A DNA stretch of 64,000 bases from Dictyostelium discoideum (GCA_000004695.1 CM000151.3:832001-896000), one strand, 5' to 3'; positions 1 through 22,081 are shown, counted from the first letter of the stretch. Made by a program: numbers and translations. Notes: generated by a model from the sequence alone, not told the origin.

Positions 1-1
1 A

Positions 2-1093
2 AAAATTTTCCAAACTGGTAATGAAAGTGATGATGAAGAAAGTGATAATGATGATAGTGACGATAGTGATTCAAATAATTCAGATTCAGAAACTGATGAA
101 GAAAAAGAAATTGAAAAACAAATTAAAGAGGCAACATCAAATCCAAATTATAGGGTAAAAACATCAGTTTTTTCAGTACCAATTTTTAAACTTCATGGTG
201 AATTAGATCAACAAACTAGAACTAAAACATTTTTTGATTTTAAAAATTCACCAAATGGTATTTTATTAACTACCGATGTTTCAGCAAGAGGTTTAGATTT
301 ACCATCGGTAAATTGGATCGTTCAATATGATCCATGTTCCGATACAAAAGATTATATTCATAGAATTGGTAGAACTGCTCGTTTAGGTAATCAAGGTTGT
401 TCATTATTATTCCTTTTACCAAGTGAAAAGAAGTATATTGATCATTTGGCTAAATTTAATGTCTCTGTTAAAGAAATGAAAGTTACAACTATTCTTCAAA
501 GTTTATTCTACACAAGTGATGGTCAATTGAAAAAAACTTCAAAATCTTCACAATTGGAATCACAAGTACACGATTTACAATTACTATTTGAAAGATTTTT
601 AATTTATGATTCAAAAGCAAAGGAAATGGCAAGATGTGCTTATCAATCTTTCCTTAGATCTTATGCAACTCATAAAGCTGATGTTAAATCAATATTTCAT
701 ATATCTTATTTACATTTAGGTCATGTTTCAAAGAGTTTTGCACTAAGAGAAACTCCAACAGAATTAAATAAAATGTCTGCTGGTATTAAAGGTGCTAAAG
801 CGGCTAAAAAAGGTGATGAAGATACACTCCAAAAACAAACTGCTGATTTTAAAATGAAAAATTATAAATCTGTAAATGAATTCTCTGATGGTTTAAATGA
901 TCAACCTTTACAAAGAGCAAATTTCCATTATGAATCTGCTAGTGGTGTCATTCACAATATCTATCAACGTCATTTCAATAGAAACGAAAGAGATGAAGCT
1001 GATAAAAACTCAAATCCAAAAGAAATCAAAGAAAAGAAAAGAAGATTATATGATAAAAAAATTGAATCAAATAAAAAATTTAAATCAAAATAA
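2..1093 (+). CDS. DEAD-box ATP-dependent RNA helicase, C-terminal part (DDX31/Dbp7/DDX10-like). 5'-truncated by the window edge; stop at 1091-1093.
   Basis: The frame-2 ORF is continuous from position 2 to the TAA. It contains helicase motif VI (YIHRIGRTARLGNQG), the preceding LLTTDVSARGLDLP motif V region, an acidic Ser/Asp tract, and a basic Lys-rich C-terminal tail typical of nucleolar DEAD-box proteins. Confidence 0.8.
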   Translation, partial: KIFQTGNESDDEESDNDDSDDSDSNNSDSETDEEKEIEKQIKEATSNPNYRVKTSVFSVPIFKLHGELDQQTRTKTFFDFKNSPNGILLTTDVSARGLDLPSVNWIVQYDPCSDTKDYIHRIGRTARLGNQGCSLLFLLPSEKKYIDHLAKFNVSVKEMKVTTILQSLFYTSDGQLKKTSKSSQLESQVHDLQLLFERFLIYDSKAKEMARCAYQSFLRSYATHKADVKSIFHISYLHLGHVSKSFALRETPTELNKMSAGIKGAKAAKKGDEDTLQKQTADFKMKNYKSVNEFSDGLNDQPLQRANFHYESASGVIHNIYQRHFNRNERDEADKNSNPKEIKEKKRRLYDKKIESNKKFKSK

Positions 1094-1212
1094 ATAATCT
1101 TTTTAAAAAAATAAATATATATTATCCATTTTTTTTTTTTTTTTTTTAAAAAGTAATAATTTTGTAAATTGTTTATTATTTTTTTCTAAATACTATTATA
1201 CATTTAATTAAT

Positions 1213-1567
1213 TTAATTACAACCACAACTTGGATGTAAAATTGGATTTGTAATGGTACCAACTGTGTTTAAAACTGATCCCACAATTACACCAGTACCA
1301 ATTAAAACTCCACCAACAAGATTTCCTACTACATTTCCCAAAGTTGGTCCACCACATGGGCTATATTGAATTGAGTTTAATGATTGACTAGATGATGGTG
1401 ATGATGATGAGAATGAAACATTTTTTGATTTTGTAATTGATTTAACATTACCAATTGATGAGATTGAAGCTATAATAAATTAATATTAATATTTATAATT
1501 TTAAAAAATAAACAATTTAAAAACTATATTTTTTTAAATTTTATTATAAATTACCTAAGATTGTCAT
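1213..1567 (-). CDS. HssA/B-like (hssA/2C/7E family) small Gly/Ser-rich protein, copy A (solo). Exons 1555..1567 and 1213..1469, intron 1470..1554.
   Basis: On the minus strand a 13-nt exon ATGACAATCTTAG is followed by GTAATT, and the acceptor is TTATAG. The spliced ORF encodes [88 protein letters not shown] (89 aa). Confidence 0.7.
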
Positions 1568-2238
1568 TTTTAGTTTTTAGTTTTTTTTTTTTATTATTTT
1601 TAAAAAAAAAATTATTTATTTATAGTAAAATAAAATCATATGTTTTTTTTTTTTTTTTTAACTTGTTTGGATAATAAATGATTTCATTTTTTTGATTAAT
1701 ATTAATCAATACAGATTTATTGTTTGAGTTTTAATTGTATGAAATACCAAAAAAAGTAAAAGTTAATCTTTGAAAATGAGATTTTCAAAAAAAAACAAAA
1801 GGATTATAATAAAATAATCTATTTTTTTTTTATTAAAAAGGATAAAAATATTTTTTGGAAAAATGAAAATGATTTGGTGTGTTTAAATCTATAAAAAATT
1901 AATTGCCTTTTTGCAAATGAAAAAATTTTAAATAAAAAAAAAAAAAATAACACAGATTAAAAATTAAATATTTAAATCTGATTTTAATTTGTTAAACCCT
2001 TTTTTAAAATTATTGACTTTTTCTGTTGATTGTTATAATGATAATTGAATGATTACAAAAGTTTATATTAAAACTTAAGATTTTCTTATTCATTTTCATA
2101 TCCTTTTTTTCTTTAAAAATATTAAATTTTAATATTACTCTAATATTTTGAATTTGTTTTGATAAAAATCAATATATTTAAATATATTAATTTTTTTAAA
2201 AGTCAAGTAACATGTAAAGATAAACAAATTATTTTAAA

Positions 2239-2277
<39 letters not shown>

Positions 2278-2355
2278 AATTAATTTAATTTTTACAGTTT
2301 ATTGAATTATTTTTAGTATTTGTTTTAATCTTTTAATTTAAATAATTTTACAGTT

Positions 2356-2685
2356 TTAATGGCAACCACAGTTTGGACCACTTAATAAACCACCAACAAC
2401 ACCATTGACAGTACCAACAATAATACCAGTTCCGACAAGTACACCACCTACGAGATTACCAACAGTACCAATTAATGGACTACCACCACCGCAGCCACCA
2501 CATTGTATTGAATTTGATGATTGTAATGATGAGTTTGATAATGATGAAAAATTATTTGATTTTGAAATTGATTTAACATTACCAATTCATGAGATTGAGG
2601 CTATTTAAAAATAATATAAAATAATTAATTTTAATATTATTTAATGTATATATATATATATATAAAACATACCTAAGATTGTCAT
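2356..2685 (-). pseudogene. HssA/B-like gene copy B with a premature in-frame TGA at codon 9 (probable pseudogene). Exons 2673..2685 and 2356..2600.
   Basis: It has the same two-exon structure (ATGACAATCTTAG, then GTATGT ... AAATAG). Exon 2 reads GCC TCA ATC TCA TGA, where all other copies have TCA at that position. The rest is in frame and ends CGCH*. Confidence 0.5.
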
Positions 2686-2834
2686 TTTTAATTTTGTTAA
2701 TTGGAAATTAATTTTTTGATTTAATGATTATAAAATAAAAAAAAAAAAAACCTTTTATATCAAATTTTTTTAAACAAAAATTATTTATTTTTATTTGTTT
2801 TTAATTTATCTTACAAAAAATAAAAATAATAATT

Positions 2835-3038
2835 AACTATCAATTAAGAAATAATGTGTTAATGGGGGTAATTATTGTGTGTTAATTAATCAACCGAATC
2901 CACCAAGGTTTTGATATGTATAAACTATTAAGTTAATACTTCATATAAATTTTTTTTTTTAAAATTTATATTGTTTCAGTTTAATTGTTCAAACACACAA
3001 TTAACCCCTCATTAACACATTATTTCCTAATTGATAGT
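2835..3038. promoter_or_regulatory. Bidirectional intergenic palindrome between divergent hssl copies B and C. Arms are about 2835-2889 and 2981-3038, with a conserved ~100-bp spacer.
   Basis: ACTATCAATTAAGAAATAATGTGTTAATGGGGGTAATTATTGTGTG is matched by the reverse complement of CACACAATTAACCCCTCATTAACACATTATTTCCTAATTGATAGT. G5/C5 cores in otherwise ~85% AT DNA. Confidence 0.6.
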
Positions 3039-3389
3039 AAATTTAAAGTATTTTTATTTATTTTTAAAGAATTTTTATTTATTCTACTCACACATCATAT
3101 TAAAATTTTTTTTTTTTTTTTTTTTTATTGTGTGGTATAATTTAATATATCTATTATACAAGAAAATAGTTTTTTGAAAATGAGATCTTTTGTGATCTAA
3201 ACAGTTAAATTTCTGAAAAAAAAGAATTTAATTATAATAATAAATTATTTGTTTTTTTTAAATTGATTTTTTTTTTTTTTAAATTTTTTTTTTTTCAAAA
3301 GTTCAAAATAAAAGTATAAATTCTAATTTTATTTCAATCATTATTTCATTAAATTAAACAATCAAAAAAATTTTAAATAAATTAATAAA

Positions 3390-3739
3390 ATGACACTCTT
3401 AGGTAAGTAATTAAATAATTAATTATAGTTTATTAAAAAATAATTTTATTAATTACTTATTTTTTAATATTAAAAAACTTAGCTTCAATCTCATCAATTG
3501 GTAATGTTAAATCAATTTCAAAATCAAATAATTTTTCATCATTATCAAACTCGTCATTACAATCATCAAACTCAATACAATGTGGTGGCTGCGGTGGTGG
3601 TAGTCCATTAATTGGTACTGTTGGTAATCTCGTCGGTGGTGTACTTGTCGGAACTGGTATTATTGTTGGTACTGTCATTGGAACTGTCAATGGTGTTGTT
3701 GGTGGTTTATTAAATGGACCAAACTGTGGATGTCATTAG
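3390..3739 (+). CDS. HssA/B-like protein, copy C. Exons 3390..3402 and 3483..3739, intron 3403..3482.
   Basis: ATGACACTCTTAG|GTAAGT ... CTTAG|CTTCAATC. The spliced product is [89 protein letters not shown] (89 aa). The 77-aa minus-strand ORF in the provided track is its antisense artefact. Confidence 0.75.
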
Positions 3740-3940
3740 AACTGTAAAATTATTTAAATTATAATATTTTGTAATCAAAAAAGTTTTTTTATAATAAATA
3801 ACTTTGTATTAATAAAAAATTAAATCCAAAAAAGACTTAATGTTTCATTTTTTATTTTTTTATAATTTTTTTATTTTATTTTTACAATATTGTAAATTAC
3901 AAAAAGAGATTGATTATTTATACTTTTTTAAATTAATTAC

Positions 3941-4225
3941 ACTGACTTTCAACAGTTCTAGCATTTAGAATTAAAATATCAATTTGATATTACTTATAAA
4001 ATTTAATTAACCAATCTTTTAATTTACTTTGTCAGTAATATCAATCGATTCTACTTGAACACCAATATCCAAACATTCTTTTTTACTTCTTCTAATATTT
4101 CAATTTCCTTCCAGTCAAACCAAACCTCTTCCAGGATGACGCACCTGTGATAACTATTGCTTTTGGTGTCGGAAAATTTGTTTTCTTTTTTTATAATTTA
4201 AAAAACTTAATATTGTATAAAATAA
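3941..4225 (-). pseudogene. Decayed, internally deleted relic of SDR exon 1.
   Basis: Collinear nucleotide similarity to 6655-7000 (ACTGACTTTCAACAGTTC.AGCATTT..AATTAAAATATCAATTT, then CACCTGTGATAACTATTGCTTTTGGTGT.GG.AAATTTGTTTTCTTTTTTTATAATTTAAAAAAC). It has gaps and no intact ORF. Confidence 0.5.
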
Positions 4226-4348
4226 AATATAAACAAATGAATTCAAAAATAATTTTTTTATTTTTAAATAATGAATTTAATTTTTACAGTTTATTGAATT
4301 ATTTTTAGTTTTTGTTTTATATCTATTAATTTAAATAATTTTACAGTT

Positions 4349-4688
4349 TTAATGGCAACCACAGTTTGGACCACTTAATAAACCACCAACAACACCATTG
4401 ACAGTTCCAACGACAGTACCAAGAATAATACCAGTTCCGACAAGTACACCACCTACGAGATTACCAACAGTACCAATTAATGGACTACCCCCACCGCAGC
4501 CACATTGAATTGAATTTGATGATTGTAATGACGAGTTTGATAATGATGAAAAATTATTTGATTTTGAAATTGATTTAACATTACCAATTGATGAGATTGA
4601 AGCTATTTAAAAATAATATAAAATAATTAATTTTTAATTATTTTGTGTATATATTTTTAGATTTTAAAGACATACCTAAGATTGTCAT
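4349..4688 (-). CDS. HssA/B-like protein, copy D. Exons 4676..4688 and 4349..4602.
   Basis: Minus strand: ATGACAATCTTAG|GTATGT ... AAATAG|CTTCAATC. The 88-aa product ends [11 protein letters not shown]. It carries a 3-nt in-frame deletion relative to copy C (QCGCGGGSP). Confidence 0.7.
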
Positions 4689-4837
4689 TTTTTTAATATT
4701 GCTAATTGTAAATTTTAATAGTTTGATTTAATGATTTTTTTTTAAAATAAAAAAACCTTTTATATCAAATTTTTTAAAACAATAATTATTTTTTTTTATT
4801 TATTTTTAATTTATCTTACAAAATAATAATAATAATT

Positions 4838-5041
4838 AACTATCAATTAGGAAATAATGTGTTAGTGGGGGTAAATATTGTGTGTTAATTAATCAACCGA
4901 ATCTACCGAAGTTTTTATATGTATAAACTATTGTGTTAGTTCTTCATATAAATTTTTTTTTTTAAAATTTATATTGTTTCAGTTTAATTGTTCAAACACA
5001 CAATTAACCCCACATTAACACATTATTTCCTATTTGATAGT
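4838..5041. promoter_or_regulatory. Bidirectional intergenic palindrome between divergent hssl copies D and E.
   Basis: Arms are about 4838-4893 and 4984-5041 (GTGTTAGTGGGGGTAAATATTGTGTG and CACACAATTAACCCCACATTAACAC). Same spacer as the B/C unit. Confidence 0.6.
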
Positions 5042-5374
5042 AAATTTATATTATTATTATTTTTTTTTTTTTTTAGAAGTTTTATTTATTAACACATATT
5101 AATAATTTTTTTTTTTTTTGTGTGGTTTAATTTAGTATATCAATTATACAAGAAAATAATTTTTTGAAAATGAGATTTTTTGTGATTTAAACAGTTAAAT
5201 ATCTGAAAAAAAAAAGAATTTAATTATAAAAATAAATTATTTGTTTTTTTTTTAAATTAATTATATTTTTTAATTTTTTTTTTATTGAAAATAAAAGTAT
5301 AAATTCTAATTTTATTTTCAATCATTATTTCATTAAATCAAACAATCAAATAAACTTTAAAATAAATTAATAAA

Positions 5375-5721
5375 ATGACACTCTTAGGTAAATAATTAAA
5401 ATAAATTGTAGTTTATTAAAAAGTAATTTTATTAATTTATTTTATTTTATAAATTTAAAAAATTTAGCTTCAATCTCATCAATTGGTAATGTTAAATCAA
5501 TTTCAAAATCAAATAATTTTTCATCATTATCAAACTCATCATTACAATCATCAAACTCAATACAATGTGGTGGCTGCGGTGGTAGTCCATTAATTGGTAC
5601 TGTTGGTAATCTCGTAGGTGGTGTACTTGTCGGAACTGGTATTATTGTTGGTACTGTCGTTGGAACTGTCAATGGTGTTGTTGGTGGTTTATTAAGTGGT
5701 CCAAACTGTGGATGCCATTAA
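5375..5721 (+). CDS. HssA/B-like protein, copy E. Exons 5375..5387 and 5468..5721.
   Basis: ATGACACTCTTAG|GTAAAT ... TTTAG|CTTCAATC. The 88-aa product is ...[54 protein letters not shown]. Confidence 0.75.
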
Positions 5722-5871
5722 ATTTATTAAAATCGATAATGTTTTTTTATAATAAATAAATTTGTATAAATAAAAAATGAATTTCAAAAAAGACTTAACA
5801 TGTTCATTTTTATTATAACTATTTTTTTTTTTTTTTTTTACAATATTATAAATTACAAAAAAAAAGATTGA

Positions 5872-7063
5872 TTATTTATTATGAGTCTTAATTTTTTGAG
5901 AATTTAAATTTTTAACTGATGAGGAGGGACAATTTTCTCTTTTTGATTCATTTGTAGAATATCGAGAGTGATGAGAATAATGAGTTACTGGTTTCCTATA
6001 GTCTGGATATTTTGCAAGAGAATTTATAATAAAATTAGTGGCATCTCTTAAAGTTGGTGGAATTGTGGCAAAGAAATGAGATATACAATAAACTAAAGGT
6101 GGGCATGAAATTATTGCATCATTTCTACTAATACCATCTACAATGTATTTTGAAGCTTTGTCAGTTGTTATAGGTAGTAACATTGGTATATCTTTATAAT
6201 CCAAAGAATCAACTAATGGAGTATAAACAAAACCTGGTATTATTACTGAAACGCCAACACCTCTTGATGCTAAACCATTTCTAAGTATTAACCCAAATGA
6301 TTTTAGGTAACCTTTACTTGATGAATATCCTGCCATTGTATAATCAAAATATGGTGTAATACTTGACATCAAAACCAATTGACCAGATCCTCTTGATTCA
6401 AAGATTGGTACCATTGGTAAAACTGTATTCAAGGTTCCAATTACCTATAATAAATAATTTATTAATTAGTTTTAAAAGAATATCATTACTTTTTATATTT
6501 TTAAAATTATTTAAGATATTACATTTGTGTTTGTAACTGTTAATATTCTTTCAGTAAAATCTAATTCTTTTGGTAACATTGCTGGAATTTTTTTTTTAAA
6601 TATAAATAAATATATTAAGAAAACCAATTTTTTTTTTTTTAAAAAAGTAATTATACTGACTTTCAACAGTTCCAGCATTTGCAATTAAAATATCAATTTT
6701 ATATTTATTATCAAATTTAATTAACCAATCATATAATTTTTCTTTGTCAGTGACATCAATTGATTCAATTTCTACTTGAACACCAAGATCCAAACATTCT
6801 TTTTGAATTTCTTCTAATTTTTCAATGTTTCTTCCAGTTAAACCTAAAACCAAAGAATTATTGGTTTTTCTTTTTGCATATTCAAGTGCTATTCCTCTAC
6901 CAATACCAGATGATGCACCCGTGATAACTATTGCTTTTGGTGTTGGGAAATTTGTTTTCTTTTTTTTATAATTTAAAAAACCTAATATAGGATAAAATAT
7001 TAAAAGAATCATTGAACCAATTATATTGGTCAACAATAAAGATATATCAGTTAGCACTGCCAT
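5872..7063 (-). CDS. Short-chain dehydrogenase/reductase (classical SDR, N-terminal membrane anchor), paralogue 1. Exons 6661..7063, 6523..6581 and 5872..6444.
   Basis: Exon 1 carries a TM helix plus the Rossmann motif ITGASSGIGRGIALEYAKR and IANAG, with a GTCAGT donor. The 59-nt middle exon (acceptor TTCCAG) encodes MLPKELDFTERILTVTNTN, with a GTAATA donor. Exon 3 (acceptor TTATAG) encodes VIGTLNTVLPMVPIFESRGSGQLVLMSS...YSSSKGYLKSF, the catalytic S..YxxxK. Frame is continuous across both junctions, giving 344 aa. Confidence 0.7.
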
Positions 7064-7130
7064 TCTTATTATTAATTTTTTTTGAAAAATTTAAATTAAA
7101 AAAAAATTTAAATTAATAAAAAAAATTTAA

Positions 7131-7168
<38 letters not shown>

Positions 7169-7334
7169 TTAAAGTGTTAAAATTCTAAACCGTTTAAAAG
7201 AATGTTTAATTAATTAATTCAAAAACACCAAGAATAAAAATTGATTTACAATATTAAATTTTCATTTTTTAACAAATTTTTTTTATATTTTTTAAAAAAA
7301 ATACAAAACAGGAAGGTTGTCAAAACAGATCTAT

Positions 7335-7382
<48 letters not shown>

Positions 7383-7645
7383 TTTAATATAAAATTAAAT
7401 AATTAAATAAATCATTTTAAATCTAATTTTAATTTTAAAAACATTTTACAAAGATTAAAATCAGATTTAAAATAACTTTTTCTTTAGTTAATCAAATAAT
7501 AATTAAATAATTTCAAAAGTTTATATTTATACTTTTTTTTTTTATTCATTTTCATATTCACTTTTAATAAGATTATCATAAAAAATTCTGAATTGTTTTA
7601 ATGAAATAAATTTATTAAATATTTTAAAAAAATGAATTCAAAATT

Positions 7646-7680
<35 letters not shown>

Positions 7681-7760
7681 AATAATGAATTTAATTTTTA
7701 CAGTTTATTGAATTATTTTTAGTATTTTTTTATATCTATTAATATAAATAATTTTCAGTT

Positions 7761-8107
7761 CTAATGACATCCACAGTTTGGACCACTTAATAAACCACCA
7801 ACAACACCATTGACAGTTCCAACAACAGTACCAAGAATAATACCAGTTCCAACAAGTACTCCACCGACGAGATTACCTACGGTACCAATTAATGGACTAC
7901 CACCACCGCAGCCACATTGAATTGAATTTGATGATTGTAATGACGAGTTTGATAATGATGAAAAATTATTTGATTTTGAAATTGATTTAACATTACCAAT
8001 TGTTGAGATTGAAGCTAAGTTTTTAATATTAAAAAATAAATAATTAATAAAATTTTTTTTTAATAAACTACTATTAATTATTTTAATTACTTACCTAAGA
8101 GTGTCAT
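7761..8107 (-). CDS. HssA/B-like protein, copy F. Exons 8095..8107 and 7761..8014.
   Basis: Minus strand: ATGACACTCTTAG|GTAAGT ... ACTTAG|CTTCAATCTCAACAATTGG. The 88-aa product ends CGCH*. Confidence 0.7.
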
Positions 8108-8246
8108 TTTATTAATTTATTTAGAGTATTTTGATTTAATGATTTATTAAAAAAAAAAAAAAAAAAAAAATCCTTTTATATCAAAATTTTTTATAACAAT
8201 AATAACAACGTTTATTTGCTTTTAATTTATCTTAATAATAGTAATT

Positions 8247-8447
8247 AACTATCAATTAGGAAATAATGTGTTGGTGGGGGTAAATATTGTGTGTTAATTA
8301 ATCAACCGAATCTACCGAAGTTTTTATATGTATAAACTATCGTGTTAGTACTTCATATAAACTTTTTTTTTAAATTTATATGTTTCAGTTTAATTGTTCA
8401 AACACACAATTAACCCCACAATAACATATTATTTCCTAATTGATAGT
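8247..8447. promoter_or_regulatory. Bidirectional intergenic palindrome between divergent hssl copies F and G.
   Basis: Arms are about 8247-8305 and 8388-8447 (GTGTTGGTGGGGGTAAATATTGTGTG and CACACAATTAACCCCACAATAACAT). Confidence 0.6.
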
Positions 8448-8761
8448 AAATTTATATTATTATTATTATTTTTTAAAAAAAGTTTTATTTATTCTTCTCA
8501 CACACATTAAAAATAATAATATTTTTTTTTTTGTGAGGTTTAATTTAATATATCGATTATATAAGAAAATAATATTTTGAAAATAAGATTTTTTGTGATT
8601 TAAACAGTTAAATATCTGAAAAAAAGAATTTAATTATAATAATTAATTATTTGTTTTTTTTAATTTTTTTATTTTTTTTATTCAAAATAAAAGTATAAAT
8701 TCTAATTTTATTTTCAATCATTAAATTAAACAATCAAATAAACTCTAAATAAATTAATAAA

Positions 8762-9112
8762 ATGACACTCTTAGGTAAGTAATTAAAATAATTAATAGTA
8801 GTTGATTAAAAAATAATTTTATTAATTATTTATTTTTTAATATTAAAAAACTTAGCTTCAATCTCAACAATTGGTAATGTTAAATCAATTTCAAAATCAA
8901 ATAATTTTTCATCATTATCAAACTCATCATTACAATCATCAAATTCAATTCAATGCGGTGGCTGCGGTGGTGGTAATTCATTAATTGGTACTGTTGGAGG
9001 TCTTGTTGGTGGTGTACTTGTTGGAACTGGTATTATTGTTGGTACTGTCATTGGAACTGTTAATGGTGTTGTTGGTGGTTTATTAAGTGGTCCAAGCTGT
9101 GGATGCCATTAA
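8762..9112 (+). CDS. HssA/B-like protein, copy G. Exons 8762..8774 and 8856..9112.
   Basis: ATGACACTCTTAG|GTAAGT ... CTTAG|CTTCAATC. The 89-aa product is ...[55 protein letters not shown]. Confidence 0.75.
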
Positions 9113-9261
9113 AATAATGTTTTTTAGAATAAATAAATTTGTATATATAAAAAATGAAATTCAAAAAATACCTAACACCTTTCTTTTTTTTTTTTTATTA
9201 TTTGTTTTTAATTTTTTTATATAATTACTAAAATTGAATTTTTTTTTTTTTTTTTTAAAAA

Positions 9262-9365
9262 TTAATTACACTGACTTCCAACTGTTCCAGTATTTGCAAT
9301 TGATCAATTTGATGTTTATCATCCAAATTTAATTAACTGATCTTTATATTTTCTTTGTCAGTGAC
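9262..9365 (-). pseudogene. Short relic of SDR exon 1, between hssl copies G and H.
   Basis: ACTGACTTCCAACTGTTCCAGTATTTGCAATTGATCAATTTGAT...TTTCTTTGTCAGTGACATCA is collinear with 6655-6760 of the intact SDR gene. No ORF. Confidence 0.4.
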
Positions 9366-9528
9366 ATCATAAAAATTCTGAATTTGTAGTTATAAAATGT
9401 AACATGTAAAGATTAACAAATGAATTCAAAAATAATTTTTTTTTTTTTTTATTAATTTAATTTTTACAGTTTATTTGAATTATTTTTAGTATTTGTTATA
9501 TATTTTTTAATTTAAATAATTTTACATT

Positions 9529-9870
9529 TTAATGGCAACCACAGTTTGGACCACTTAATAAACCACCAACAACACCATTGACAGTTCCAACGACAGTACC
9601 AACAATAATACCAGTTCCTACAAGTACACCACCCACAAGATTACCAACAGTACCAATTAATGGACTACCACCACCACAGCCACCACATTGAATTGAATTT
9701 GATGATTGTAATGACGAGTTTGATAATGATGAAAAATTATTTGATTTTGAAATTGATTTAACATTACCAATTGATGAGATTGAAGCTATTTAATAATAAA
9801 ATAAAATAATTAATTTTTAATTATTTTGTGTATATTTTTTAGATTTTAAAGACATACCTAAGATTGTCAT
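9529..9870 (-). CDS. HssA/B-like protein, copy H. Exons 9858..9870 and 9529..9785.
   Basis: Minus strand: ATGACAATCTTAG|GTATGT ... AAATAG|CTTCAATC. The 89-aa product ends CGCH*. Confidence 0.7.
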
Positions 9871-10008
9871 TTTTTTAATTTTGTTAATTGTAAATTTTAA
9901 TAGTTTGATTTAATGATTTTTTTAAAAAAAAAAAAACCTTTTATATCATAATTTTTAAATTTTTTTATTTGTTTTTAATTTATCTTACAAAAAAAAAAAA
10001 TAATAATA

Positions 10009-10210
10009 AACTATCAATTAGGAAATTTATGTGTTAGTGGGGGTAAATATTGTGTTAATTAATCAACCGAATCTACCGAAGTTTTTATATGTATAAACTA
10101 TCGTGTTAGTACTTCATATAAACTTTTTTTTTAAATTTATATTGTTTCAGTTTAATTGTTCAAACACACAATTAACCTCACAATAACATATTATTTCCTA
10201 ATAGATAGTA
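10009..10210. promoter_or_regulatory. Bidirectional intergenic palindrome between divergent hssl copies H and I.
   Basis: Arms are about 10009-10062 and 10152-10210 (GTGTTAGTGGGGGTAAATATTGTGTTAATTAA and CACACAATTAACCTCACAATAACAT). Confidence 0.6.
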
Positions 10211-10562
10211 TATTTTTATTATTATTTTTTTTTTAAAAAAAGTTTTGTTTTTTCTTCTCACACATATCATATAAAAAATAATAATAATAATTTTTTTTTT
10301 TTTTTTGTGTGGTTTAATTTAATATATCGATTATACAAGAAAATCGTTTTTTGAAAATGAGATTTTTTGTGATTTAAACAGTTAAATATCTGAAAAAAAG
10401 AATTTAATTATAATAATTGATTATTTGTTTTTTTTTTTAAAATTAATTATATTATTTAATTTTTTTTTTTTATTCAAAATAAAAGTATAAATTCTAAATT
10501 TATTTTCAATCATTATTTCATTAAATCAAACAATCAAATAAACTTAAAAATAAATTAATAAA

Positions 10563-10912
10563 ATGACACTCTTAGGTAAATAATTATAATTAATTATAGT
10601 TTATTAAAAAAGTAATTTTATTAATTATTTTATTTTATAATATTAAAAAACTTAGCTTCAATCTCATCAATTGGTAATGTTAAATCAATTTCAAAATCAA
10701 ATAATTTTTCATCATTATCAAACTCATCATTACAATCATCAAATTCAATTCAATGTGGTGGCTGCGGTGGTGGTAGTCCATTAATTGGTACTGTTGGTAA
10801 TCTCGTCGGTGGAGTACTTGTTGGAACTGGTATTATTGTTGGTACTGTTGTTGGAACTGTCAATGGAGTTGTTGGAGGTTTATTAAGTGGTCCAAACTGT
10901 GGATGTCATTAA
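10563..10912 (+). CDS. HssA/B-like protein, copy I. Exons 10563..10575 and 10656..10912.
   Basis: ATGACACTCTTAG|GTAAAT ... CTTAG|CTTCAATC. The 89-aa product is ...[55 protein letters not shown]. Confidence 0.75.
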
Positions 10913-11066
10913 AATAAATGTTTTTTTATAATAAATAGCTTTGTACAAATAAAAATGAAATTCAAAAAGATTTAATACATTTCTTTTTTTTTTATTATTT
11001 ATTTTTTTATTTTTTATTTTTACAATATTTATTTTTAAATTAGAAAAAATGATTAATTATTTATTA

Positions 11067-12242
11067 TTATGCCTCTTTATTTTTTTGAGAATTTGAATTC
11101 ATAGCTGGTGAGGAGGGACAATCCTCTCTTTTTGATTCATTTGTTGAATATTGAGAGTGATGAGAATAATGAGTTACTGGTTTACTATAATCTGGATATT
11201 TCAAAAGAGAATTTGAAATGAAATTAGTGGCATCTCTTAAAGTTGGTGGAATTGTGGCAACGAAATGAGATATACAATAAATTAAAGGTGGGAATGAAAT
11301 TATTGCATCATTTCTACTAATGCCATCGACAATGTATTTTGAAGCTTTGTCAGTTGTTATAGGTAGTAACATAGGTATATCCTTATAATCCAAAGAATCA
11401 ACTAATGGAGTATAAATAAAACCTGGTGTTATTACTGAAACGCCAACGCCTCTTGATGCTAAACCATTTCTAAGTATTAACCCAAATGATTTTATGTAAC
11501 CTTTACTTGATGAATATCCTGCCATTACATAATCAAAATATGGTGTAATACTTGACATCAAAACCAATTGACCAGATCCTCTTGATTCAAAGATTGGTAC
11601 CATTGGTAAAACTGTATTCAATGTTCCAATTACCTATAATAATTTATTAATTAGTTTTAAAAGAATATCGTTACTTTATATTCAAATTATTTAAGATATT
11701 ACATTTGTGTTTGCAACTGTTAATATTCTTTCAGTAAAATCTAATTCTTTTGGTAAAATTGCTATGAAAATTATTTTTTTTAAATAATTAATACAAGTAA
11801 ACCTTTTTTTTTTTTTTAAAAAAAATTATGTATACTGACTTTCAATAGTTCCAGCATTTGCAATTAAAATATCAATTTTATATTTATTGTCAAATTTAAT
11901 TAACCAATCATTTAATTTTTCTTTGTCAGTGACATCGATTGATTCAATTTCTACTTGAACACCAAGACCCAAACATTCTTTTTGAATTTCTTCTAATTTT
12001 TCAATGTTTCTTCCAGTTAAACCTAAAACCAAAGAGTTATTTTTTTTTCTTTTTGCATATTCAAGTGCTATTCCTCTACCAATACCAGATGATGCACCCG
12101 TGATAACTATTGCTTTTGGTGTTGGGAAATTTGTTTTCTTTTTTTTATAATTTAAAAAACCTAATATAGGATAAAATATTAATAGAATTATTGAACCAAT
12201 TATATTGGTCAACAATAATGATATATCAGTTAAGACTCCCAT
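11067..12242 (-). CDS. Short-chain dehydrogenase/reductase, paralogue 2. Exons 11840..12242, 11703..11761 and 11067..11633.
   Basis: Exon-intron structure is identical to paralogue 1 (GTCAGT donor; 59-nt middle exon with TCATAG acceptor encoding ILPKELDFTERILTVANTN; GTAATA donor; TTATAG acceptor). Motifs TGASSGIGRGIALEYAKR, IANAG and YSSSKGYIKSF are present. About 342 aa. Confidence 0.7.
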
Positions 12243-12655
12243 TCTTATTATTTTTTATTTTTTTTGAAATGAAAAAAAAAAAAAATTATTAAATGGCAAA
12301 AACTCAATCAAAAAAAAAAAAAATAAATAAATAAAAAAAATAAAAATAAAATAAAATAAATCTGATTCCAAAGATATTTTTAGATTTTTTTTATTTTTTT
12401 TTTTTTATTTTTCCCAAATAAGAATTTAATTAAATAAAAATTGAATAATTAAATAAACCAAAATTAAAAAATAAAATATAAAAAACAAATTACTTTAATT
12501 AGAAATTAATTTATAAAAAAAAAGAAAAAAGAAAATTGTGAAATAAATTTTTTAAAATTATGGAGCATATAAAAAGAACAAATTTTTTTTTTATTATTTC
12601 CAATATTATTATTTATATTTTAAAAAATAAACAAATAAACAAATAAAAAAAAAAA

Positions 12656-13699
12656 ATGTTTAAACAAATAATTATATTTATAGCTTTAATACTTTTTATT
12701 TTTAATCAATTGGATATAGTATCAAGTTGTAGATGTGATTCAGATTGTGAAGATTGTAACGAATGTACATTAGATACCTGCTCCCGTGGATGTTGTTCAA
12801 ATATTGAAATAGATTGTGCTGATGATAATCCATGTACCAAAGATTCATGTTCCAAAGAGACTGGTTGTATTCATGAAGATATTAATTGTGATGATGGTGA
12901 TGCTTGTACAACTGATTCATGTTCTCAATTATCTGGTTGTTGTAATTTACCAATCTCTTGTGATGCTTGTACAACCGATTCTTGTTTAAATTCCACTGGT
13001 TGTTGTAGTTTACCAATCTCTTGTGATGATGGTGATGCTTGTACAACTGATTCATGTTCAAAGAAAACTGGTTGCAGTAATGTTCCAATTGCATGTGATG
13101 ATGGCAATGCTTGTACCAATGATGGTTGTTCAAAGGAAACTGGTTGCACTCATTCTAATATCGATTGTGATGATGGTGATGCTTGTACAACTGATTCATG
13201 TTCAAAGAAAACTGGTTGCTGTAATGTTCCAATTGCTTGTGACGATGGTAATGCTTGTACCACTGATGGCTGTTCCAAGGAAACTGGTTGCACACATTCT
13301 AATATCGACTGTGATGATGGTGATGCTTGCACTACTGATTCATGTTCTAAAAAGACTGGTTGCAGTAATATACCAATGTCTTGTAATGATAATGATGCTT
13401 GCACAACCGATTCATGTTCAAACTCTACTGGTTGTTGTAATTCCCCGATTTCATGCGATGATGATCATGCTTGTACCACCGATAGTTGTTCTAAAGAAAC
13501 TGGTTGTTGCAATTCCCCAATCTCTTGTGATGATGGTGATTTGTGTACCACCGACAGTTGTTCTAAAGAAACTGGTTGTTGCCATACTCCAGTTTCATGC
13601 GATGATGGAGAAGATTGTACAACTGACACTTGTTCATCAAAATTAGGATGTGTTCATACCTATATCACTATTTCTCAACCAAAACCTGTTGATTGTTGA
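12656..13699 (+). CDS. Secreted cysteine-rich protein built from about 13 tandem ~24-aa Dictyostelium CTDC-type repeats (CDDGDACTTDSCSKETGC...).
   Basis: Single 347-aa ORF with an N-terminal signal peptide (MFKQIIIFIALILFIFNQLDIVSS). The repeats fit the Dicty_CTDC (slime-mold repeat) pattern D.CT.D.C....GC. Overlapping ORFs in other frames are artefacts of the nucleotide repeat. Confidence 0.75.
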   Translation: MFKQIIIFIALILFIFNQLDIVSSCRCDSDCEDCNECTLDTCSRGCCSNIEIDCADDNPCTKDSCSKETGCIHEDINCDDGDACTTDSCSQLSGCCNLPISCDACTTDSCLNSTGCCSLPISCDDGDACTTDSCSKKTGCSNVPIACDDGNACTNDGCSKETGCTHSNIDCDDGDACTTDSCSKKTGCCNVPIACDDGNACTTDGCSKETGCTHSNIDCDDGDACTTDSCSKKTGCSNIPMSCNDNDACTTDSCSNSTGCCNSPISCDDDHACTTDSCSKETGCCNSPISCDDGDLCTTDSCSKETGCCHTPVSCDDGEDCTTDTCSSKLGCVHTYITISQPKPVDC

Positions 13700-13884
13700 C
13701 ACTAACTTTAAAAAATAAAAATATTCAGAAAAAAAAAAAAAAATAAAAAAAAAAATAAAAAAAGCTAAAAATAAAAAAATCTCGAAAAATTAGGTTTTAA
13801 AAAATGAAAAGTTTTTTTTTAAATATTTATTTTTTTTTTTTCCACAATTACCACCATTCTATAGATAAAATTAATAATTTATAA

Positions 13885-16800
13885 ATGATTTTTAAATTAT
13901 TAATTTTATTAATTTTTATAAAAATTACCTTTATAAATACATTAATAACAAAAAGTTATTACGTTAATAAATCAGGTAGTGATTTCAGTGGTAATGGTAC
14001 AATTGATAATCCATTCAAAAGTTTATGCAACCCTTTATTATCAATAATAAATGAAATTAAAGATCCTTATACAAATGTTAACGTTTTTATTGGGAATGGA
14101 TATTATTACAACTTAAATTGTACTAAGAAATTTAATAATAATAATATAAATATAATATCATTTTCACCTTATAAAGAGAACTATAATCAAAGTGATATAA
14201 CTATATCAAATTTTAATTTTCAAGTGATAAATAGTATTGTTCAATTTATCAGATTGAAATTAATATATGATATAGAAAACAATGGTTTAGAAAAGATAAA
14301 GATAAATGATAATGCACAATTGATAATATCAGGTTGTGAAGTCACACTGGAAAATCAATTAAAAAGCTCCTATTTCATTCATTCTAATAGATCTCACATT
14401 GGCATAATAAATTCAAATATAAAATCCTCTTCAAAGATTATGTACATTGAGGAAGATAGTAGTGGACAAATTAGGAATTGTATATTCAAAGATATAATAT
14501 CAAATCAACAATCAATTGTAGTAATAGATAGTTACTTAAATACAGAAGATGTAATTTTTGAAAACATTTACTCGATTGGAACTAGTTTTTTAACTTCAAA
14601 TTCTAGCACCGTAACATTTAATAATTGTAGTTTTTCAAATTTAATTATCGATGGTTTTCACCCATTTTCAACAACTTCAGATTCATTAATTAATTTTAGT
14701 GGATTTACAATCAAAAATTCATTTTTTCAAAGAGGATTTCTAAGAATTAAAAATTCAAATACATCAATTGAGAATGGAGTTTTTTTAAATAATAAAGCGT
14801 ATGGGTTTAATTTAGAAACAGATTCTTTGATTATTATAGAGGATAGTGATGTCGTTGATATATTTGATTGTAGTTTTAAAGGTAATTCAATTTCTTCTTT
14901 TTTCTTTTTTAATAATTCAAAAGTAATGATTCAATCATCAACATTTATAGATAATATTAGTACTTTTTTAGTTTCAAATAATAGTTTTGTCTTTGTTGTT
15001 GATGTTGAATTTTCAAATTGTAAATCTTCACTTTCAAAGTTTTTATTCTCCTTATATCAATCAAACTCACTTTTAGATAGAATTTCAATATTTTCAAATT
15101 CATTTATGGGTTCAGTTGTTCAGTGTATTGAATGTTCTCTAACTTTTGAAAAATTAAAATTTCAAGATAATGAATTTTTTAAAAATCCATTATATTTTAA
15201 TGATGATGATGATGATATTAGTGATTATAATGATAATGATTTTCCAAGTGCTGCAATCAATATTAAAGATGGTCATTTAAATATAGTAAATTCAACTTTT
15301 CAATCAAATATTCATTGGTCAAATAATTTAATTAGAATAAAAGAAAAAAGTGATATTAATTTTACAAATACATTATTTATTAATAATGAAATAAAAAAAG
15401 AAAATTTTAATTTAATTTCAATTGATTACTCAATATTAAGATTTAAATCTATAAATTTTAAAAACACAAAAACGATTAGTGGTGCAATTGGTATTTTTAA
15501 TAATTCTTTATTTGGTTCAACTAATTCAAATTATTCTAATAATTATTGCTCACAGAGTGGCTCTATTTTTTATTTTAATAATAATTCAAATTTTATCAAC
15601 TCTACTACAAATGCAAATGATGATGATGATGATGAATTAACAAATAATACATTCACTAATAATCATGCTATAATATCTGGTGGTGTATTATTCTCAATGG
15701 ATTCAATAGTTTTAGATATTCAAGATGATAAATTCAATAACACATTTTCAAACAATAGTGCGTTTTTTGGAAATATATATGCATCAAATCCAACATCAAT
15801 TAGAGTAGAATTACCATCAACCACTAATTTAAGATTAGAATCAACTATTAAATTATATGACCAATATGAAAATTTAATTATACGAAATGTTTATGATATT
15901 CAAGTTATAGTTACTATGATTAATAATAATAATGGTTCATCAACATCTATTATTAAAACATTTAATACAGCAATTAAAAATGGTTTTGGTTTATTTGATT
16001 TTTCATTTAAAACAATTGATAAAAATGGTGAATCAATTTATATCTATAGTAACTATTATAATTTTACAATTTATACCAATATATCATTACCAAATATTCC
16101 AAATTATAATGGCACTTTTATATTAGATTCTTCAAACCTCTGCCCTCTTCAATATCAATATTACGATAATGGTGAATGTAAATTTTGTCCAGTAGGTACT
16201 ACCCTCTCAAGTTTATTATATGCAAGTGGTAAAGCATCATGTGTAAATTGTTTTTCAAATACTGTTTGTTTAGGATCAATGGTTTATACTTTTGATAATT
16301 ATTACTTATTAATTGATAATAAAACAGCGATTGGTACATATCAATGTCCGGTGGGAATGTGTGGAAATTATGGTTCATGCATTGCTACTCAAAATACAGG
16401 TTTATTATGTTTAGAATGTGTTGATGGAAACAGTAAAAATGGATTCTATTGTTGTTCTTCAAGTTCTCCATGGTTAATTATAGTTTACATTATTTTTATT
16501 ATTTTATTTGGTTTATCATTTTCGTTAATTAAATATTGTGATAGATTATCAATTTCAATTTTTAAATCAACAATTGTATTCTTTCAAATTAATTCAATGA
16601 TTTTCTATGCATATCCAGGTTTATACTTTATTCAATTGTTTAGATTCTCAATTGATTTCATTTCGAACATTTGTATTTTCAATAAATTTAATTACATTTA
16701 TAAATCAATGCTTACATTAATATCAATTATAATTGTTATTGGATTATCACAAACTCATATTTCATTAACAATTTTAATTAAATTAAATTTATTCCCTAAA

Positions 16801-17460: not shown

Positions 17461-17530
17461 TTAAAATCAATTTAATTAAAATTAATTTAATTATACATAT
17501 AATAAAATTTAATTTTTTTTTTTTTTTTTA

Positions 17531-18921: not shown

Positions 18922-19073
18922 TAGATTTTGACTATTAGTAATAATAAAAATAATAATAAAAATTAAAAACTAATAAAAAAATAATAAATTTAATTACTTT
19001 AAACGAAATAAAAAAGTTATTTATATATTTCCTATATGAAATGATACTAATAATATATTTGTTGTTTTTTTCT

Positions 19074-19108
<35 letters not shown>

Positions 19109-19192
19109 TCTTGCAACAATTTGTTTTTTTTTTTTTTCAAATTTATTTTTTATTTTTTTTTTTTCCTCAATCTTAAAAAAACAATCATCAAA

Positions 19193-20713: not shown

Positions 20714-20960
20714 TAATAATAAAAATAATATTAATAAATAATAATAATGCATCTATCCAAAAAACATAAAATTTACCCCCACTAACACATTATTTCCTAT
20801 TGATATTTTTTGTAATAAAAATTAAAATAATAAATTTAATTACTTTAAATGAAATAAAAAATTTATTTATATTTAGTTCCTATATGAAATGATACTAATA
20901 GATTTGTTGTTTTTTTTTCTTTTTAAATTTAATATTTTATAAACTTTTTTTTTTTTTTTT

Positions 20961-22011: not shown

Positions 22012-22081
<70 letters not shown>

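Follow-up and report, generated by a model that had tools for sequence, protein, structure and literature searches.

Positions 1213-12519 of the window, the 64,000-nt stretch of Dictyostelium discoideum DNA analysed here, are a cluster known from the literature, sigN Group 2, a tandem gene family of the ordinary kind whose copy number is still shifting. We hold with high confidence that this is the cluster of D. discoideum AX4 chromosome 2 and that it originated in nested steps by unequal crossing-over.

The core of the four-unit interpretation was published in 2008 for the same locus. Vicente et al. (BMC Microbiol 8:1, PMC2257962) reported pairs of inverted genes, a palindromic promoter with G-box (GBF) sites and prestalk expression, and proposed that the cluster arose from two inverted genes in tandem through successive rounds of duplication. 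The additions made here are the SDR gene within the repeat unit, a nested history from one to two to four units and the 747-bp deletion junction shared by the SDR remnants; further additions are a nonsense codon in gene B-, the mosaic sigN11 (gene F-), one to four units among lineages, one inverted unit and purifying selection. The words 'dehydrogenase' and 'pseudogene' have 0 occurrences each in PMC2257962, and neither an SDR gene in the unit nor a nonsense-bearing ninth gene is mentioned there; the nested arrangement of alpha and beta units, the mosaic nature of sigN11 and the cross-lineage variation in copy number were not found in the sections consulted. The new detail is incremental to a known locus.

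Genes and repeat units of the cluster

Group 2 was described as seven ~95%-identical genes and the divergent sigN10 in a region of ~10 kb (PMC2257962). The locus in the window has the same gene number and the same inverted pairs, and for 8/8 intact genes the protein lengths agree with those of sigN6, 7, 8, 9, 10, 11, 12 and 14 (Table 1, PMC2257962), as do the intron sizes (8/8, with a constant offset of +1). Individual sigN names were given by protein length and intron size, not by sequence. Intergenic regions that are palindromic and hold GBF-type G-boxes in two pairs (regions A and B in PMC2257962) are likewise present in the window. In addition, both spliced SDR proteins show a 100% match to the AX4 proteins XP_645503.1 and XP_645508.1, on a contig of 8,484,197 bp. 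In development, Group 2 genes are expressed in prestalk cells from 10 h onwards, the sigN9 promoter gave prestalk lacZ reporter expression, and deletion of the whole cluster (9.6 kb, by homologous recombination) caused no phenotype (PMC2257962).

An earlier note on this DNA had claimed nine HssA/B-like genes within 11 kb, eight of them in four head-to-head pairs about 690 bp apart. Nine hssA/2C/7E-type (sigN) genes are indeed present at 1213-10912, and eight of them form four head-to-head pairs with ATG-to-ATG distances of 704, 686, 654 and 692 bp, but one gene, B-, is not intact:

1213-1567, minus strand: gene A-, divergent family member outside the four units; matches sigN10 (89 aa, intron 85)
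2356-2685, minus strand: gene B-, unannotated partner of sigN6; TGA at codon 9, 12-nt deletion; likely pseudogene
3390-3739, plus strand: gene C+, matches sigN6 (89 aa, intron 80)
4349-4688, minus strand: gene D-, matches sigN12 (88 aa, intron 73)
5375-5721, plus strand: gene E+, matches sigN7 (88 aa, intron 80)
7761-8107, minus strand: gene F-, matches sigN11 (88 aa); mosaic
8762-9112, plus strand: gene G+, matches sigN8 (89 aa, intron 81); most diverged protein of the eight
9529-9870, minus strand: gene H-, matches sigN14 (89 aa, intron 72)
10563-10912, plus strand: gene I+, matches sigN9

Genes of the hssA/2C/7E type are defined by a 13-nt exon 1 ORF, a single short intron, an exon 2 with the remainder and a product of <120 aa (PMC2257962). 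All nine genes possess this structure, with a 13-nt exon 1 (ATGACA[A/C]TCTTAG, followed by GT), an intron of 72-85 nt and a product of 85-89 aa, and the family profile (Pfam PF05710, 'Coiled') matched gene I (E=1.8e-26) and gene A (E=6.5e-23), both above the gathering score. The CDS of A- is 68-69% identical to the other copies. The in-frame TGA and the 12-nt deletion in B- leave 8/9 genes intact; the stop codon is also found in the independent assembly L009, and the orthologues in the lineages L002 and L006 are intact. The in-frame 3-nt indels reported earlier are real: among the eight paired genes, the CGGCGGG stretch reads QCGGCGGG in five (B, C, G, H and I), QCGCGGG in two (D and F) and QCGGCGG in E.

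Self-BLASTN of the window recovered four collinear units with SDR sequence in each, as had been claimed for the order hssl- / palindromic promoter / hssl+ / SDR-. Units 2 and 4 (4225-7165 vs 9408-12341) are 90.1% identical over 2997 bp, and units 1 and 3, including an extra left flank of ~300 bp (1956-4043 vs 7394-9369), 79.3% over 2146 bp; further matches were 2261-3921 vs 4253-5879 (87.5%) and 7575-9242 vs 9366-11036 (84.1%). The units and SDR sequences are as follows:

1956-4224: unit 1 (alpha); X-flank, pair B-/C+, truncated SDR tail
4225-7393: unit 2 (beta); pair D-/E+, intact SDR gene and upstream region
7394-9407: unit 3 (alpha); X-flank copy, pair F-/G+, further decayed SDR tail
9408-12519: unit 4 (beta); pair H-/I+, intact SDR gene and upstream region
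7394-7475: approximate block-duplication junction, where SDR-upstream sequence meets the second X-flank copy
5872-7063, minus strand: intact SDR gene; exons 7063-6661, 6581-6523, 6444-5872; 344 aa (XP_645503.1 / Q75JC5)
11067-12242, minus strand: intact SDR gene; exons 12242-11840, 11761-11703, 11633-11067; 342 aa (XP_645508.1 / Q75JE7)
3916-4224, minus strand: SDR remnant in the alpha tail of unit 1; exon 1 and start of intron 1 only; 73.7% to 6627-6999; also recovered by tblastn
9243-9369, minus strand: SDR remnant of unit 3; 84.1% to 6628-6758; left junction shared with the remnant of unit 1

The junction is placed by matches of 7336-7475 to 12374-12519 and of 7394-7763 to 1956-2358. The fourfold presence of the SDR gene thus agrees with the earlier note, which had located the decayed copies close by (3941-4225 and 9262-9365). 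The intact three-exon genes encode an adh_short domain (PF00106, E=3.4e-30); TGASSGIGRG, ANAG and YSSSK, corresponding to the classical SDR motifs TGxxxGxG, NAG and S...YxxxK, can be read in both models, and the AX4 annotation lists both as SDR family proteins. The units hold sigN and SDR ORFs only, which does not fit a mobile element, and no unit copy was found elsewhere within the 64-kb window, with the sole exception of a solitary arm fragment of ~80 nt (20761-20839).

Sequence exchange and selection among the copies

F- (sigN11) is a mosaic, the 5' end of which was converted from its inverted partner G+. Its diagnostic sites read as 26 of minus type, then at least 21 of plus type, then seven of minus type. 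The plus-type, G-like segment begins at about -27 and takes in exon 1 and the intron, with a minimum tract of about 8003-8134; the upstream and 3' flanks are of minus type.

Recent or ongoing concerted evolution had been suggested for the array. Sequence exchange does occur, as F- shows, but the protein identity among the copies is kept mainly by purifying selection. The proteins of H and I are identical except for residue 3 (Ile vs Leu, exon 1), and the two genes differ at 11 synonymous positions and one non-synonymous position; among the coding copies in general pN is far below pS, with differences at 4-11 synonymous and 0-4 non-synonymous sites, comparisons with G excepted. It is unlikely that the near-identity of the copies results mainly from ongoing gene conversion and not from selection at the protein level, even though the 3' end of C+ is of minus type, in addition to the mosaic F-, and paralogues of some units cluster within lineages. 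Besides the excess of synonymous differences, the alpha/beta orthology is recognisable across lineages, and position-specific intron and flank types are kept in nearly all of them. The SDR copies behave like passengers, which are either retained (pN/pS 0.37) or deleted.

History of the array and copy number

The comparison of unit number across related genomes, which the earlier note had recommended, revealed one unit in L005 and L003, two in L002, three in L006 and L008, and four in L007 and the window. The flanks of L002 and L006 are 98.7-99.0% identical, yet these close D. discoideum lineages possess two and three units, respectively; the copy number is still being altered, presumably by the same unequal crossing-over that built the array.

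The array would have started from one unit, as D. dimigraforme and D. firmibasis still have it, and would then have reached two units. One 747-bp deletion would subsequently have removed SDR exons 2-3 from the proximal (alpha) unit, before the alpha-beta block of ~5.4 kb was presumably doubled to alpha-beta-alpha-beta, each nested step of growth most probably occurring by unequal crossing-over. We infer both this mechanism and the time at which the block was duplicated: collinear units, copy-number differences in close relatives and shared internal junctions are present, as would be expected of an array formed in this way. In the alpha tails, both those of units 1 and 3 in the window and those of L002, L006 and L007, ~5845-5879 is joined directly to ~6627-6644. 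Both window remnants start where 5852-5879 meets 6627-6628, with derived bases in common, and the same applies to L002, L006 and L007. This junction (window-equivalent 5879 to 6627), shared by both remnants and three lineages, points to one deletion which preceded the duplication of the two-unit block. The X-flank is present in two copies in the window, L006 and L007 and in one copy in L002, and tail 2 of L006 is collinear with window 6756-7763.

It could be argued that the block was duplicated recently, in the AX4 lineage alone, and that L007 reached its four units and L006 its three by independent events. Window units 2 and 4 resemble each other more than they do any orthologue, L002 has just two units, and the units of L007 group together in the tree, a grouping that fits independent duplication and concerted evolution equally. 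This history is nevertheless doubtful, for the X-flank and the segment from the SDR-upstream region to the next unit are common to the window, L006 and L007 (the internal junction shared by L006 and L007 resting on 68-79% alignments in AT-rich DNA), and unit 3 is equally distant from unit 1 and from unit 1 of L002. In the pair region, unit 1 and unit 3 are 88.7% identical, the two beta units 95.1%, and unit 1 and its L002/L006 orthologue 91%. Since the alpha units have diverged more than the beta units, a single block duplication requires later homogenisation of beta or faster decay of alpha.

Amplification of an ancestral unit at least four times, followed by differential decay, had been the earlier interpretation. 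The four units exist, but a history of four or more amplifications of one unit, with later, independent SDR decay in units 1 and 3, is disfavoured and appears improbable. The remnants are unequal in length (309 vs 127 bp), and the SDR decay in L008 is of a different, independent type with exon 3 retained; however, the remnants of both window units and of L002, L006 and L007 begin at one junction, alpha and beta units alternate, and the X-flank was duplicated along with the block. The nested history, with one deletion prior to the duplication, is preferred.

Promoter core, inversion and related systems

In each unit, two inverted hssA/2C/7E genes for Ser/Gly/Cys-rich prestalk proteins of ~88 aa diverge from a shared regulatory region of ~690 bp. 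The conserved centre of ~250 bp is a degenerate palindrome with two G-boxes per strand as candidate GBF sites, and the SDR gene, located tail-to-tail behind the plus gene, is part of the unit. The cores are:

2795-3057: promoter core of unit 1; arms 2815-2886 and 2993-3059; paired G-boxes
4800-5060: promoter core of unit 2; arms ~4822-4889 and 5000-5058; two G-boxes on each strand; 70% to its own reverse complement over 244 nt
8220-8466: promoter core of unit 3; conserved palindrome
9969-10226: promoter core of unit 4; conserved palindrome

An inverted repeat of 38-57 nt, with a distance of 134-166 nt, occurs in 4/4 promoters, and gapped alignment of the entire ~240-bp core to its own reverse complement gave ~70%. 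The ungapped palindrome of a single promoter scores only 2.6-4.2 SD above dinucleotide shuffles, and among 100 shuffles the best one scores as high or higher. What shows the palindrome to be real is therefore not the score per copy but its conserved position in every unit and lineage. Conservation of the core equals that of exon 2 (14 units compared). Each promoter contains 2+2 G-boxes, with four to six consensus matches per ~0.69 kb vs 1.08 per kb in the window. Regulation of Group 2 by GBF was proposed previously (PMC2257962), and the boxes, which are paired and follow the consensus (T/G)G(T/G)G(T/G)G(T/G), are candidate sites to which GBF may bind. The palindrome most plausibly serves as a shared regulatory module upstream of the genes, with its G-boxes in pairs.

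That its role is instead structural, as a recombinogenic cruciform or fragile site which drives amplification and inversion, is very unlikely. The palindrome is highly conserved and central in every unit, and one inversion and one conversion event are known, but its arms of only ~50 nt are 81-88% complementary and enclose a spacer of ~135 nt. Short arms with a long spacer are unfavourable for cruciform extrusion. Moreover, the arms consist of G-box pairs, the conversion tract and the inversion breakpoints fall in genes, away from the palindrome, and inverted pairs without this palindrome exist in D. firmibasis and D. dimigraforme. In one cryptic species (L008) a whole pair was flipped: a reverse alignment of unit 1 extends over 1.37 kb (88%), the asymmetry of its promoter is 321/155 and not ~150/335, and its MTLL and MTIL gene types are swapped. 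The former suggestion that the pair geometry with its palindrome promotes recombination or inversion thus holds insofar as copies exchange sequence, but the likely substrates are the inverted genes of ~420 bp and not the palindrome.

The array is real, because the L009 assembly (GCA_054883475.1), taken as independent and de novo, reproduces window 1-17084 with 1 SNP and 3 homopolymer indels. Such repeats are a classic source of misassembly, but an expansion artefact of assembly, which the earlier note had named as a concern, has a negligible chance: no support for it was found, the units differ from each other by 5-20%, L009 is collinear over 17 kb, and 9.6 kb were removed here through homologous recombination in 2008 (PMC2257962).

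The sigN Group 1 genes (sigN1-5 and sigN25, chromosome 2) belong to the same family as Group 2, with the same gene structure, and likewise show divergent pairs (sigN1/3, sigN2/4), G-boxes and prestalk expression (PMC2257962). Unlike in Group 2, their intergenic regions are non-palindromic (PMC2257962), and they are located at about 2.24 Mb, outside the window. Other tight hssA/2C/7E clades are also co-expressed, e.g. nine cup-cell genes (PMC6198379). The family as a whole (PF05710; ~96-100 D. discoideum genes) shares the 13-nt exon 1 ORF, the one intron and the small Ser/Gly-rich products found here, but most members, unlike the array in the window, are not described as higher-order units with a passenger gene.

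Large inverted repeats, e.g. the human Y-chromosome palindromes, undergo arm-to-arm non-crossover conversion, and crossover inverts their spacer. These are a work-alike only, in which inverted paralogues exchange sequence as in the sigN pairs; the arms measure 0.4 kb here vs tens to hundreds of kb, and inverted copies are 84-88% identical here vs above 99.9% in the human palindromes. A head-to-head pair is also formed by tgrB1 and tgrC1. At this Dictyostelium locus (PMC12745789) the genes are large and polymorphic, act in recognition and evolve under diversifying selection, in contrast to the small sigN copies with their purifying selection.

Identity and content of the locus

The array corresponds to a locus that is already known, and its basic model was published in 2008. 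Both spliced proteins of the intact short-chain dehydrogenase (SDR) genes are identical to the AX4 proteins XP_645503.1 (Q75JC5) and XP_645508.1 (Q75JE7) of chromosome 2. "sigN Group 2" was described as a region of ~10 kb on chromosome 2, comprising sigN6, 7, 8, 9, 11, 12 and 14 and the divergent sigN10 (Vicente et al. 2008, PMC2257962). The protein lengths tabulated in that paper agree with those of all eight intact genes, and the intron sizes also agree with a constant offset of +1. The incremental additions of this analysis are the co-amplification of the SDR gene, a pseudogene partner, a mosaic sigN11, copy-number variation and an inversion.

The region is very AT-rich (GC 12-30%). The exon-1 motif ATGACACTCTTAGGTA was found at nine sites in the motif search, every one within 1567-10563, and the spliced products at these sites comprise 85-89 aa.

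Genes and SDR sequences of the array (sigN names are putative assignments)
1213-1567, minus strand: gene A, sigN10
2356-2685, minus strand: gene B, unannotated, partner of sigN6 (gene C)
3390-3739, plus strand: gene C, sigN6
4349-4688, minus strand: gene D, sigN12
5375-5721, plus strand: gene E, sigN7
7761-8107, minus strand: gene F, sigN11
8762-9112, plus strand: gene G, sigN8
9529-9870, minus strand: gene H, sigN14
10563-10912, plus strand: gene I, sigN9
7063-6661, 6581-6523 and 6444-5872, minus strand: exons of the intact SDR gene of unit 2, 344 aa
12242-11840, 11761-11703 and 11633-11067, minus strand: exons of the intact SDR gene of unit 4, 342 aa
3916-4224 and 9243-9369, minus strand: SDR remnants (self-BLASTN, tblastn and tail alignment)

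The pairs B/C, D/E, F/G and H/I are arranged head to head with ATG-to-ATG distances of 704, 686, 654 and 692 bp, respectively. The proteins match PF05710 (E=1.8e-26), and both intact SDR proteins match adh_short (E=3.4e-30). Codon 9 of B- is a stop (TGA, in frame), and this gene also has a 12-nt deletion; the remaining eight genes are intact. The only gene given as unpaired in PMC2257962 is sigN6, which fits B- as an unannotated pseudogene; the terms "dehydrogenase" and "pseudogene" have zero occurrences in the text of that paper. The nine genes, four head-to-head pairs and fourfold SDR sequence seen in the earlier note were thereby confirmed.

Self-BLASTN recovered four collinear units with SDR sequence in each, as the same note had claimed: 4225-7165 matched 9408-12341 (90.1% over 2997 bp), 1956-4043 matched 7394-9369 (79.3% over 2146 bp), 2261-3921 matched 4253-5879 (87.5%) and 7575-9242 matched 9366-11036 (84.1%). 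A mobile-element reading of these units was rejected, as sigN and SDR ORFs are the only ones in the units and the 64-kb window has no further copy of a unit, apart from a solitary arm fragment of ~80 nt.

An origin of the array from collapse or expansion during assembly, raised in the earlier note, is contradicted by a second assembly, GCA_054883475.1, which was reached by lookup of the SDR protein. It aligns end to end with window positions 1-17084 and differs in one SNP (G/A at 15762) and three homopolymer-length changes (~7133, 7337 and 7648), which fall in extended A or T stretches of the array. Due to this near-identity, the stop codon of B- is present in both assemblies. Judging from the accession series, shared protein names and near-identity, this assembly probably belongs to the de novo set of PMC12745789, which was assembled from Nanopore and Illumina reads and includes AX2.

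For practical work with Dictyostelium, it is relevant that the sigN6 partner is a probable silent pseudogene and that the published Group 2 deletion of ~9.6 kb, according to its size and position, would also have removed at least one SDR gene. According to PMC2257962, deletion of the whole region caused no phenotype, Group 2 is induced at 10 h and peaks at 14 h, and the sigN9 promoter drives lacZ in prestalk cells. The general understanding of the sigN family is not changed by the additions made here.

In three copies, the antisense strand of exon 2 contains an open frame of 67-77 codons (2405-2608, plus strand; 3457-3690 and 5442-5672, minus strand). The codon composition (Gly/Val/Ser) probably accounts for these frames. 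Directly to the right of the array lies a Cys-rich ORF of 347 aa (12656-13699, plus strand) built up of a 72-bp (24-aa) tandem repeat of the type DDGDACTTDSCSKETGC in about nine copies; its alignments to one D. discoideum locus (L002) at many offsets suggest that the repeat number differs there.

Copy number and nested growth of the array

A protein search with the SigN protein gave one match only, a lone family member in unrelated surroundings in D. dimigraforme (L001), and the exact SigN sequences were absent from the protein collection searched. The comparative loci were therefore reached via SDR homologues and scanned by tblastn and with the exon-1 motif.

Units at the window and the comparative loci
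D. dimigraforme (L005): one pair beside a single SDR gene
D. firmibasis (L003): one pair beside a single SDR gene
D. discoideum (L002): two units
D. discoideum (L006): three units
D. cf. discoideum (L008): three units
D. cf. discoideum (L007): four units
D. discoideum AX4 (window): four units

The new long-read Dictyostelium genomes thus show the changes in copy number (1, 2, 3 and 4 units) directly. The flanks of L002, L006 and L007 are 96.8-98.3% identical to the window and those of L008 94-95%; the flanks of L002 and L006 are 98.7-99.0% identical to each other, although their unit number differs (2 vs 3). The D. citrinum locus (L004), in which the SDR gene is adjoined by an hssl fragment only, is uninformative on the order of events.

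The history of the units was read from the tails, i.e. the stretches from the stop of a plus gene to the stop of the next minus gene, aligned to the tail of unit 2. In the coordinates of that tail, 5731-5879 is joined directly to 6627-6999 in unit 1, and 5736-5852 to 6628-6758 in unit 3. The same junction occurs in three further lineages (L002, 5879|6644; L006, 5879|6627; L007, 5845|6627). It follows from this common junction that a single shared deletion of ~747 bp eliminated exons 2 and 3 of the SDR gene, the intron between them and most of intron 1. Units with the deletion (alpha) and units with an intact SDR gene (beta) follow each other in the window in the order alpha-beta-alpha-beta. 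The SDR remnants of L008 retain part of exon 3, and the decay there was accordingly independent.

The left flank of the alpha units (X-flank, ~300-400 bp) is itself duplicated, with 1956-2358 before unit 1 matching 7394-7763 before unit 3, and 7336-7475 resembles 12374-12519, the region upstream of the last SDR gene. Together, these similarities place the junction of a block duplication of ~5.4 kb near 7394-7475. Two X-flank copies each are present in L006 and L007 and one in L002, and tail 2 of L006 is collinear with window positions 6756-7763. Most economically, the block duplication would be older than the split of AX4, L006 and L007 and would have been followed by losses in L006 and L002, a dating that rests on alignments of 68-79% in AT-rich DNA.

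A neighbour-joining tree built from the pair regions sets the alpha units (units 1 and 3 of the window, unit 1 of L002 and unit 1 of L006) apart from the beta units. Within the window, the pair regions of units 2 and 4 are 95.1% identical and those of units 1 and 3 88.7%, which indicates either later homogenisation of the beta units or faster decay of the alpha units. The earlier interpretation is largely right, as the unit is indeed present four times, but its scheme of at least four amplifications followed by differential decay has to be modified, since growth was nested and both remnants have one deletion junction in common. The locus is a compact and well-resolved case of a developmentally regulated family growing by nested tandem duplication, with a neighbouring gene that was carried along and then kept or deleted.

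D. firmibasis has additional hssl genes with near-identical products of 90 aa on the far side of the SDR gene, with unrelated genes between; they comprise an inverted pair and two single genes (15095-20593 of the reverse-complemented L003). The family has expanded independently around the locus in this species. Small hssl genes are mostly unannotated in the new assemblies. At 10001-10975 of L008, a 'hypothetical protein' of 207 aa (P0015) is annotated, which is 74% identical to the SDR over 35% of the query and has the hssl-type PF05710 as its sole recorded Pfam domain. Its position coincides with a degenerate hssl pair and adjacent SDR remnants, so the annotation probably represents an SDR remnant and an hssl gene erroneously fused into one model.

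Exchange, inversion and selection

In the D. discoideum complex, the gene in minus position starts with MTIL and has a GTATGT intron of 70-74 nt, and the gene in plus position starts with MTLL and has a GTAAGT or GTAAAT intron of 77-82 nt. The two exceptions are F- in the window and unit 1 of L008. Typed at the alignment columns in which minus-type genes (B, D, H) differ from plus-type genes (C, E, G, I), F- shows 26 minus-type, at least 21 plus-type and again 7 minus-type states. The plus-type stretch begins at about -27 and takes in exon 1 and the intron, and F- has ASIST codon and intron variants in common with its partner G+. F- carries a conversion tract of ~130-245 bp (minimum 8003-8134). 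Its counterpart in L007 is unconverted, so that the conversion is specific to the AX4 lineage. The chimeric sigN11 is relevant to copy-specific probes and to the assignment of RNA-seq reads.

In unit 1 of L008, the pair as a whole matches the other units in reverse orientation (1.37 kb, 85-88%), the gene types are swapped, and the ATG-to-arm distances are 321 and 155 nt, compared to ~150 and ~335 nt elsewhere. This is an inversion with breakpoints within the inverted genes. The proposal that the geometry of the pairs promotes recombination and inversion is thus supported by both events, but the evident substrates are the genes and not the central palindrome. The locus also exemplifies how inverted paralogues convert and invert each other.

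C+ (sigN6) ends with TAG like F-, and ~27 nt of 3' flank of the minus type (GAACTGTAAAATTATTTAAATTAT) precede the usual plus-type flank (3737-3775). This suggests a second mosaic from another exchange between inverted copies.

The coding sequences of the eight similar copies are 93-98% identical, and their differences are mostly synonymous (H vs I, 11 synonymous and 1 non-synonymous; B vs D, 5 and 0); G stands out with 7-9 non-synonymous differences. It follows that the protein is under constraint and that the likeness among the copies reflects more than recent conversion alone. For the SDR genes of units 2 and 4, pS is 0.084 and pN 0.031 (ratio 0.37). Recent or ongoing concerted evolution, as inferred earlier from the likeness of the copies, is in part borne out by the gene conversion in F-, but the synonymous excess shows that purifying selection acts as well.

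The promoter core

Each pair promoter contains ungapped arms of 38-57 nt, 134-166 nt apart, and the core of ~240 bp is ~70% identical to its own reverse complement if gaps are allowed. The palindrome score per promoter is 2.6-4.2 SD above shuffles, but is equalled by the best shuffle and hence not decisive alone. Similarity between the intergenic regions of adjacent inverted genes, "indicating their palindromic structure", and two pairs of GBF-type G-boxes (regions A and B) are described in PMC2257962. Here, every promoter has a pair of TGGGGGT and TGTGTGT on the top strand at ~170-190 and a pair of TGTGTGT and TGTGGGG on the bottom strand at ~295-320, with a G-box background in the window of 1.08 matches per kb. 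Binding of GBF was proposed in that paper, and the present sites are candidates.

Among 14 units of five lineages, the segment of arms and spacer (4802-5051) shows a conservation per column of 0.92-0.99, equal to the level of exon 2, compared to 0.69-0.9 in the flanking intergenic DNA; by blastn-short, the arm is 94-100% identical between lineages. TATA-like boxes, read from the sequence, lie ~75 nt upstream of each ATG and outside the core. From these features, the core is best read as a putative shared upstream regulatory module. When the core was searched by BLAST with permissive settings in D. firmibasis, D. citrinum and D. dimigraforme, the matches were AT-rich noise only (58-70%). The pair promoters of D. 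firmibasis and D. dimigraforme showed no equivalent G-box palindrome, so that this element is apparently confined to the D. discoideum complex.

Neither a tRNA scan nor an Rfam scan, which covered the whole window, returned a match, and a known RNA gene in the core is unsupported. The arms were also compared by eye with DUSE-like upstream elements of snRNA/class-I RNA genes, a reading rejected on an imperfect consensus match and poor conservation ~60 nt downstream.

The non-palindromic spacer of ~135 nt, conserved like coding sequence, and a solitary copy of the arm outside the array raise the thought that the core might have a role in addition to GBF binding, such as that of a bidirectional enhancer/insulator cassette or of an unannotated transcript. 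A joint reading, in which recombination between inverted genes in an actively unstable array repeatedly flips an asymmetric promoter whose core has such a further function, is improbable, and no observation requires it. Such flips would exchange the two paralogues between the positions at 150 bp and 335 bp from the G-box core.

The solitary arm copy (~80 nt; 20761-20839, minus strand) is situated 8.5 kb to the right of the array in the tail-to-tail gap between the ORFs 19106-20713 (plus strand) and 21054-23615 (minus strand), and it shares 29 central nucleotides (TAGGAAATAATGTGTTAGTGGGGGTAAAT) exactly with the arm of unit 2. Weaker arm matches are also present to the right of the arrays in L007 and L002, about as far away.

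The motif TTGAAAATGAGATTTT is located 185-216 nt upstream of each plus-strand gene of the pairs (3174, 5164, 8577 and 10351). It is found six times compared to 1.66 expected matches, a number reached in 2 of 100 shuffles. It also occurs once upstream of A- (sigN10; 1770-1785, plus strand), oriented as in the plus-side promoters, and may be what is left of a plus partner that A- has lost.
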